Source: Candidatus Multivoradales bacterium
Lineage (GTDB): Bacteria > Acidobacteriota > Thermoanaerobaculia > Multivoradales > JAHEKO01
Length of the DNA stretch: 64,000 nt
Assembly: GCA_965223755.1 (NCBI GenBank)
Contig: CBDCXF010000002.1
Location: forward strand, 602,526-666,525
Direction of reading: 5' to 3'
Shown here: in pieces, positions 35,092-35,514 of the stretch
How positions within the stretch are numbered: position 1 is the stretch's first letter
Layout: every line of letters starts with the position of its first letter
Translations under genes and position numbers: made by a program
Notes under the pieces: generated by a model
Told to the model about the DNA's origin: nothing
The model's input: only the letters and a program-made list of their open reading frames with translations
The model's database searches: none

Positions 35092-35514
35092 CTACGCACA
35101 GATCGACGAATTACATTGATTGGAGCAGCACTCCCGGTCTTCAGCGCATTCGTGCCCTTCGGGCCGGCAATCGTCGTTCGGGGGGTTAGCTGGATCGTCG
35201 GCAGTCGCTGACACGCATTTGCCCTGAACCTTGCTGTCGCAAATAAGGCCAGAACAGCAGGACAGTTCATCCCACCTTGAGCAGAGTGACCCTCGTGGTA
35301 GGCAAGGCTTAGGTCCGAGACACTCCGGATCGTCCGCGAGATTCTCGGGAGGAAGTTCTGTGCCCCACGGCGGGCTTTCAAGAAGAGTCTCTTGGGACGC
35401 CATTGCGTCAGGACTATTAGCAGTGTCTACTGACTGATCGCTGTTGACTTTTTCGGTGCCCACAAGCGCTATCAACATGAGCGCGAAAGACGCAGTGCTC
35501 AAGCGGATTTGCAT
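35092..35514 (-). CDS. Small secreted precursor with two knottin-like (C-C-CC-C-C) domains
   Basis: AGGAGG RBS, signal peptide, acidic pro-region, Cx6Cx7CCx4Cx7C and Cx6Cx5CCx3Cx4C. Confidence 0.75.
   Translation of the reverse strand: MQIRLSTASFALMLIALVGTEKVNSDQSVDTANSPDAMASQETLLESPPWGTELPPENLADDPECLGPKPCLPRGSLCSRWDELSCCSGLICDSKVQGKCVSATADDPANPPNDDCRPEGHECAEDRECCSNQCNSSICA

Follow-up and report, generated by a model that had tools for sequence, protein, structure and literature searches.

The window, which is the whole 64-kb stretch of DNA that we analyzed, contains an intact open reading frame at 35095-35514 that encodes a protein of 140 amino acids (all of the features in this paragraph are on the minus strand and were read directly from the sequence). 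A Shine-Dalgarno sequence, GGAGG (35523-35527), lies 8 nt ahead of the ATG start codon (35514), and the frame ends with a TAG stop codon (35092-35094). The protein begins with MQIR and then a hydrophobic run. Together with the start codon, this segment is probably a Sec signal peptide (residues 1 to about 25; 35440-35514); inspection by eye found neither a twin-arginine motif nor a lipobox, and by the same judgment the cleavage site is uncertain. The signal peptide is followed by an acidic spacer, or pro-like region, with a net charge of -9 (residues 26-70; 35305-35439), which includes the motif ADDP (residues 60-63; 35326-35337) and an odd cysteine, Cys65 (35320-35322). Next is unit 1, CLPRGSLCSRWDELSCCSGLICDSKVQGKC (residues 71-100; 35215-35304), with the pattern C-x6-C-x7-CC-x4-C-x7-C and a net charge of +1. 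An acidic, proline-rich linker with a net charge of -4 (residues 101-115; 35170-35214) contains a second ADDP (residues 105-108; 35191-35202) and leads to unit 2, CRPEGHECAEDRECCSNQCNSSIC (residues 116-139; 35098-35169), whose six cysteines are arranged as C-x6-C-x5-CC-x3-C-x4-C. With the terminal alanine, unit 2 spans residues 116-140 (35095-35169) and has a net charge of -3. The calculated pI of the mature protein is about 4.05.

The 13 cysteines are at positions 65, 71, 78, 86, 87, 92, 100, 116, 123, 129, 130, 134, and 139, so that Cys65 is the thirteenth, outside of both units. Both units follow the cysteine order C-C-CC-C-C, and the loops between their six cysteines are as long as those of knottins (6, 7, 0, 4, and 7 residues in unit 1 and 6, 5, 0, 3, and 4 in unit 2). 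In both units, exactly seven residues separate the end of ADDP from the first cysteine. An identical run of four residues in the same register upstream of both units arose in 0.08% of shuffles within the stretches and in 0.12% of draws by composition (two stretches of 15 residues, with 200,000 trials for each test, which was devised after the motif had been noticed). An earlier sequence-only reading of this DNA had described the frame, the acidic region, the two C-C-CC-C-C units, the ADDP motifs seven residues ahead of a cysteine, and the extra cysteine, and all of these agreed with the sequence residue for residue. It had also described a signal peptide: the hydrophobic N-terminus is present, and its assignment as a signal peptide was made by eye.

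The 140-residue frame looks like a real gene: a ribosome-binding site precedes its ATG, the frame is unbroken, and the DNA of the locus was free of any difference in four DNA runs (from a single study with two samples, one of which may be the source sample). Among the sequencing runs listed, none was of RNA. Its GC content by codon position (0.58, 0.53, and 0.58) is weakly gene-like. We found no match to Rfam between positions 34000 and 37000 of the window, and a scan for promoters and terminators gave no promoter-like sites and one terminator-like site, which is not above the shuffled sequences. The GC profile did not show an island. The host genome (3.24 Mb, 60% GC, and 98% completeness) contains a DsbA-like gene; we did not find VKOR (PF07884) in it.

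Downstream of the 140-residue frame and on the same strand are a gene for a secreted protein of 722 amino acids (32772-34940, minus strand), then an S8 subtilase that carries a PPC domain (30759-32729, minus strand), which is thus two genes downstream, and, beyond it, an M4 protease (28098-30557). The 722-residue protein has a subthreshold match to Pfam's DUF7948 (26.4 bits, where the cut-off is 27). We found its gene in just one other of 40 related genomes (27% identity), and this distant homolog does not have a cysteine-rich frame beside it. A genome from the same genus lacks the 722-residue neighbor; there, we found only paralogs of the kinase (36% identity). Upstream, the genes for an ECF sigma factor and for a Ser/Thr kinase that contains TPR repeats are divergent, and the remaining neighbors are unrelated enzymes. 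Among the neighboring frames scanned, we found no PqqD, nucleotidyltransferase, or other maturation gene for ribosomally synthesized and modified peptides (RiPPs) within about 10 kb, nor did the 140-residue protein itself match PqqD. No conserved partner gene for the 140-residue frame turned up in the genomes that we compared. Because the neighborhood is not conserved elsewhere, it offers no functional argument beyond being a neighborhood of secreted proteins.

The S8 subtilase has some features of its own. It has an N-terminal extension of about 230 residues, and the sequence that surrounds its catalytic residues appears to differ from the usual subtilase motifs. Its homologs at four loci (L034-L036 and L039; 36-39% identity, alignment A6) all end in …YY(A/G)IAW..HY..C, and one genome has two tandem copies. 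None of the homologs in four other genomes has a cysteine-rich frame beside it. When we predicted a complex between the catalytic domain of the subtilase (residues 225-545) and residues 60-140 of the 140-residue protein, the score was 0.02 (with the mark at 0.32).

As a whole, the 140-residue protein is an orphan, without an ortholog in the sets that we searched. In a near-length word search of 5.8 billion proteins, the protein itself was the sole match (1 of 8 candidates). An exhaustive HMMER search of 1.84 billion representative sequences returned only the protein itself and one other, P0002 (E = 5.4e-5; 49% identity over residues 113-139). P0002 has 173 amino acids and carries a signal peptide as well as two units whose loop lengths are the same. 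A Lys-Arg pair lies directly ahead of its first unit, and from this pair and from its composition, P0002 looks eukaryotic. The genome from the same genus had no match to the 140-residue protein, and when we searched the host's own genome with the whole protein, no paralog had an E value under 0.1. NCBIfam gave no families for the 140-residue protein, and its scores against Pfam were below the gathering thresholds (15.2 bits against 25.1 for PF02950, 14.5 against 27 for PF17557, and 15.1 against a cut-off of 27 for PF05980).

The units themselves do have relatives. A profile search identified 172 proteins at E ≤ 0.01, among 1170 candidates, and revealed a highly conserved, basic module without a name that forms the tail of secreted enzymes. 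Our counts for these tails rest on the 120 matches listed; after removing the 140-residue protein (P0001), P0002, and P0003, 117 remain (P0004-P0120). Among these listed matches, the unit is within three residues of the C-terminus in all 117 proteins, and in 114 of them the protein ends as CC-x3-C-x8-C-x-COOH, that is, one residue after the last cysteine. This last residue is K in 85 of the listed matches, R in 22, N in 6, and S in 1. The net charge of the tails in the listed matches ranges from +1 to +6, with a mean of +3.3. The consensus is C.P.GASC...D.CCSNKCKGKPGSKTCK; the basic residue in loop 1 varies across the family. The tails sit behind linkers that are rich in glycine or proline (poly-Gly or poly-Pro), and they are carried by trypsin-like proteins (of the lysyl-endopeptidase type), by M4, S8, M10, and M36 proteases, by proteins of the PQQ-dehydrogenase type, and by others, including nonproteases. 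Their sources have names that include "Acidobacteria bacterium" and "Thermoanaerobaculia bacterium" (other tail-bearing loci are L004-L006 and L008).

Within the host genome, two adjacent large proteins (contig C1, 440568-442403 and 442791-444464, both on the minus strand) have canonical tails, and a trypsin-like protein has one degenerate tail. Across 301 sampled genomes of the phylum, the profile for the tail module matched 28 (counting the host genome and the unpublished genome G209). Neither Pfam nor NCBIfam, in the copies that we searched, has a model that covers the tail, and NCBIfam had no family for one tail-bearing protease. PF27052 is listed among the precomputed domains for some of the tail-bearing proteases and is absent from the copy of Pfam that we searched; a very recent Pfam model may cover the tail. 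The module usually sits at the far end of secreted enzymes, after a flexible linker, and these enzymes represent at least four catalytic classes. This placement is typical of an appended, noncatalytic domain for binding or targeting, which the tail may be by analogy, and not of a class-specific inhibitor.

A second profile search identified 27 proteins at E ≤ 0.01 among 2018 candidates, and these include tandem arrays of similar units. P0003 and P0123-P0145 contain several units each. Most of the array proteins are GC-rich, their N-termini resemble those of lipoproteins, and the number of their units ranges from 4 to more than 10; one is labeled as Myxococcales. P0121 and P0122 are small secreted proteins composed of just three units; both are above the Pfam thresholds for knottin toxin families, with 41.2 bits on PF06357 for P0121. 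We also searched genome contigs for the cysteine pattern, and 4 of the 137 pattern matches were confirmed. A record labeled as uncultured Bdellovibrio encodes a secreted protein of 292 amino acids with eight tandem units of two alternating types (L031:1779-2654, plus strand), which scores 64.1 bits on PF17557 (Conotoxin_I2), and several of the array proteins clear the Pfam thresholds for Conotoxin_I2, Omega-toxin, or Toxin_19. From their sequences, the arrays appear to remain uncleaved.

We then compared the units to the rest of the host genome by using two HMMs that were built without the 140-residue protein, and we searched the full set of 47,907 six-frame ORFs (40 amino acids or longer). 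The tail HMM had three matches among these ORFs, one of which was the 140-residue frame (E = 4.2e-4). This match is due to unit 2 (21.3 bits, E = 4.2e-4); unit 1 scored 2.8 bits, which is not significant. With an HMM for the units with short loops, built from 128 array units, the 140-residue frame ranked first in the genome (E = 1.6e-7), with 24.3 bits for unit 2 (domain E = 5.9e-5) and a marginal 13.8 bits for unit 1 (domain E = 0.11). Unit 2 is also 49% identical to units of P0002. By sequence similarity, these results show that unit 2 belongs to a bacterial family of six-cysteine modules. For unit 1, neither HMM gave a significant match, and its membership is suggested by its C-L-P-R-G..C and CCSG signature, by its alignment to the first unit of P0003, and by the fold model described below. 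Judging from these similarities, the two units are most likely diverged copies of a six-cysteine module that, in the host lineage, is appended to secreted hydrolases.

Unit 2 shares with the enzyme tails the spacing C-x6-C-x5-CC-x3-C, the P-x-G in loop 1, and CCSN, and it also ends one residue past its last cysteine. However, the tails are basic, have a last loop of eight residues (KGKPGSKT), and are attached to enzymes, whereas in the 140-residue protein, unit 2 is acidic (-3) and has a last loop of four residues, the module is duplicated, and there is no catalytic domain. The loop lengths of the array units (6, 5, 0, 3, and 4) are identical to those of unit 2, some of these units have C(K/R)PxGHxC, and P0121 and P0122 resemble the 140-residue protein in being small, secreted, and made with these units. 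In contrast to the 140-residue protein, the arrays have 3 to more than 10 nearly identical units joined by short linkers of Gly/Ser, their N-terminus is often lipobox-like, and they lack both the ADDP spacer and an acidic pro-like region.

While scanning the small frames of the phylum, we came across a family of proteins of about 155-175 amino acids that end in a variable, cysteine-rich peptide. Examples are at L043:758-1234, L044:804-1283, and L045:757-1221 (all on the minus strand) and at L046:363-851 (plus strand), and the host genome has one with an eight-cysteine peptide (contig C2, 127615-128073, minus strand, which is L047:1477-1998, minus strand). All five of the fusion proteins that we scanned have an N-terminal PqqD domain that scores above the Pfam cut-off. 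This is followed by an internal signal of the twin-arginine type, which was above the cut-off for TIGR01409 in one of the four proteins scanned with NCBIfam, and which ends in an Ala-x-Ala-like motif directly before the cysteine-rich peptide. At four of the fusion loci, the C-terminal peptide has the cysteine framework of unit 2, and three of these have exactly the loop lengths of unit 2 as well as the "C-A" end. One of the C-terminal peptides aligns with unit 2 over 24 residues, free of gaps and with 46% identity. Other members have different cysteine patterns. The family is present in 25 of the 301 sampled genomes, often in several copies each, and a nucleotidyltransferase (NTP_transf_5) is the next gene in two of the three neighborhoods that we examined.

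The sequences of these fusions look like a leader-plus-core arrangement for a peptide. The likeness to our protein lies in the C-terminal unit of 24-27 residues, the loop lengths of unit 2, and the "C-A" end; unlike the fusions, the 140-residue protein has two units and no PqqD, twin-arginine motif, or neighboring nucleotidyltransferase. The layout of the fusions keeps alive the idea of released knottins for the phylum, while the 140-residue protein is without these leader features. The literature that was accessible to our search does not describe the tail module, the arrays, or the PqqD fusions, and it contains no experimentally characterized bacterial knottin. This fits with the remark in the sequence-only reading that the framework is rarely characterized in bacteria, and with the 2017 KNOTTIN paper, which reports that no experimental structure exists for bacterial knottins.

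Structure prediction had been suggested as a check on the two knottin domains, and the models support them. When the whole protein was folded without an alignment, AlphaFold2 gave a poor model (mean pLDDT of 55); even so, among the 19 matches at Z ≥ 2 for this single-sequence model, 18 were small, toxin-type peptides by their titles, aligned to unit 1 (we compared our models to 48,161 representative chains from PDB). When residues 60-140 were folded from an alignment that included relatives (A4, with 55 rows), the mean pLDDT rose to 76.9; it was 75-85 in unit 1 and about 92 in unit 2. The acidic spacer (residues 26-70) was modeled with low confidence. The best PDB match to the model of unit 1 was CcoTx-II (Z = 4.3, rmsd of 1.1 Å, 33 of 33 residues). 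The model of unit 2 matched U3-scytotoxin-Sth1a (Z = 2.3, rmsd of 1.6 Å, 28 residues) and hairpinless omega-atracotoxin-Hv1a (TM score by target of 0.84, rmsd of 0.8 Å, 25 residues). The Z scores are low (4.3 at most) because the domains are tiny (25-30 residues). The double-knot toxins DkTx and Xibalbin3 were also among the structural matches, with a poor overall rmsd, and weaker matches included the knottin protease inhibitors EETI-II, SOTI-III, and AmFPI-1. Further down the list were other small disulfide-rich folds (the N-domain of IGFBP, Dickkopf, and Bv8). All of the best matches from Foldseek were weaker than E = 0.001, and the best scores in a search of the ESM Atlas (0.81) were under the useful range.

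A profile of unit 2 and its relatives also matched solved knottins: maurocalcin (E = 2e-4), bleogen pB1 (E = 1.6e-3), and imperatoxin A (E = 8.5e-3). Thus, both units are predicted to be similar to inhibitor cystine knots (ICKs), or knottins, as had been proposed from the sequence: the units were modeled at a pLDDT of 75-92, ICK peptides are the best matches to them in PDB, and the profile of unit 2 matches maurocalcin. A disulfide pattern of the knottin type (1-4, 2-5, and 3-6, with the third disulfide passing through the ring) would be expected for both units.

Secreted proteins with a signal peptide and at least two tandem disulfide-rich domains are known as SCREPs, and according to the papers that describe the class, many of its bacterial members have domains that are not recognized (PMC6262176, PMC9885460). 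The 140-residue protein would fit the published architecture: two disulfide-rich domains were confirmed, and its signal peptide is a putative one, judged by eye. As in SCREPs and in DkTx, the putative signal peptide is followed by two tandem disulfide-rich domains that would fold independently and are joined by a short, flexible linker (PMC6262176, PMC9885460). Unlike DkTx, our protein is bacterial, has a long acidic spacer before unit 1, and has two unequal units; we found no relation to DkTx at the level of sequence. The likeness to the precursors of O-superfamily conotoxins and of spider ICK toxins consists of the C-C-CC-C-C framework, the predicted fold, and the order of signal, spacer, and cysteine-rich region. 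The differences are that the 140-residue protein is bacterial, has two units, lacks a dibasic site, and has bacterial modules as its nearest relatives. Apart from K69, in the sequence GPKPC, the seven residues before either unit contain neither lysine nor arginine, and the protein does not have a dibasic pair. Bacterial proteins of the knottin or SCREP kind have already been cataloged, and the 140-residue protein adds to the uncharacterized bacterial set.

Overall, the 140-residue protein is very probably a secreted, two-unit, knottin-like protein. It would be exported with a Sec-type signal peptide, and the exported part would consist of a flexible acidic spacer and then a pair of cystine-knot-like mini-domains, each of about 25-30 residues and folding on its own, joined by the acidic, proline-rich linker. 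Once the signal peptide is removed and the protein has folded oxidatively in the periplasm, it most likely remains intact, and by analogy to the enzyme tails, it might act as a bivalent, protease-resistant binding protein. The reading that we favor, at slightly under an even chance, is that it is an exported, intact, bivalent binding protein of the SCREP kind, with two copies of the module and a target of its own. Binding is suggested by the architecture: the placement of the tails on enzymes, the presence of two copies without an enzyme, and the acidic charge all favor a bivalent binding protein. The target would differ from that of the enzyme tails because the surface of this protein is acidic and theirs is basic.

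The sequence-only reading had instead proposed a venom-like precursor with two cores: after export, a protease would cut in or near ADDP and free two knottins that act as toxins, antimicrobials, or signals. This now seems unlikely, although the in-register repeat of ADDP ahead of the two units (P of about 0.001) fits with it, and the acidic spacers do resemble pro-regions. The S8 subtilase two genes downstream on the same strand could be read in its favor, but the homologs of this protease in four other genomes do not have an adjoining cysteine-rich frame. Similarly, the PqqD fusions of the phylum carry a similar unit after an Ala-x-Ala-like motif, in a layout that would suit peptide release, but there is no PqqD, nucleotidyltransferase, or other maturation gene within about 10 kb of our frame. 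P0002 has its Lys-Arg pair just ahead of its first unit; the 140-residue protein has neither a dibasic site nor any other known processing motif, and ADDP is missing from the other tandem arrays. A cut at ADDP would also leave Cys65 on unit 1, which would then have an odd seventh cysteine. The absence of a conserved partner gene, and the fact that the detectable relatives are mostly bacterial tails and tandem arrays, argue against the venom-like precursor as well. The repeated ADDP-x7 spacer could be a processing signal or a relic of duplication, and Cys65 could form a dimer. A broader version, in which Acidobacteria make free, encoded knottins by way of both this protein, as a two-core precursor with ADDP-x7 cleavage signals, and the PqqD/twin-arginine fusions, strikes us as quite doubtful. 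If it were true, it would be a way for bacteria to make cystine-knot natural products against competitors or eukaryotic grazers that has not been described before.

Knottins of the squash type and the carboxypeptidase-inhibitor type block proteases, and squash inhibitors act through their first loop. A tandem knottin in the periplasm or outside of the cell might likewise block the secreted proteases of the host or of its competitors. The protease-rich neighborhood (the M4 protease at 28098-30557 and the S8 subtilase at 30759-32729), the three knottin protease inhibitors among the weaker structural matches (EETI-II, SOTI-III, and AmFPI-1), and the Pro-Arg in the first loop of unit 1 are consistent with this role. 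We consider it rather improbable because the family does not conserve the basic residue of loop 1, there is no conserved association with a protease gene, and the presence of tails on four catalytic classes and on nonproteases argues against an origin as a class-specific inhibitor. We give still less credence to a young or decaying orphan frame, in which a duplicated fragment of the module gained a start codon and a hydrophobic N-terminus and has little or no function. The protein is a singleton among 1.84 billion representatives, it is missing from the genome of the same genus, the neighboring 722-residue gene is also nearly unique, and the GC content by codon position is weakly gene-like (0.58, 0.53, and 0.58). 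But all 12 of the framework cysteines are intact across both units, the ribosome-binding site is good, and both units were modeled with confidence. The intact bivalent binding protein is the reading that we prefer to these.

Knottins are valued as stable scaffolds. The 140-residue protein is a compact and easily synthesized two-unit example of a widespread module that lacks a model in the copies of Pfam and NCBIfam that we searched, and the locus is a possible handle on what the module binds when it is on secreted proteases and on the release of free knottins in bacteria. As an orphan without a functional clue, it has moderate immediate significance.

Finally, a single knottin-like cysteine unit lies in an open frame of 527 residues (L029:1002-2582, plus strand) in a record labeled as Candidatus Micrarchaeota, which are archaea. 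According to the 2017 KNOTTIN paper, archaea had no known knottins. The frame resembles a multi-pass membrane protein.
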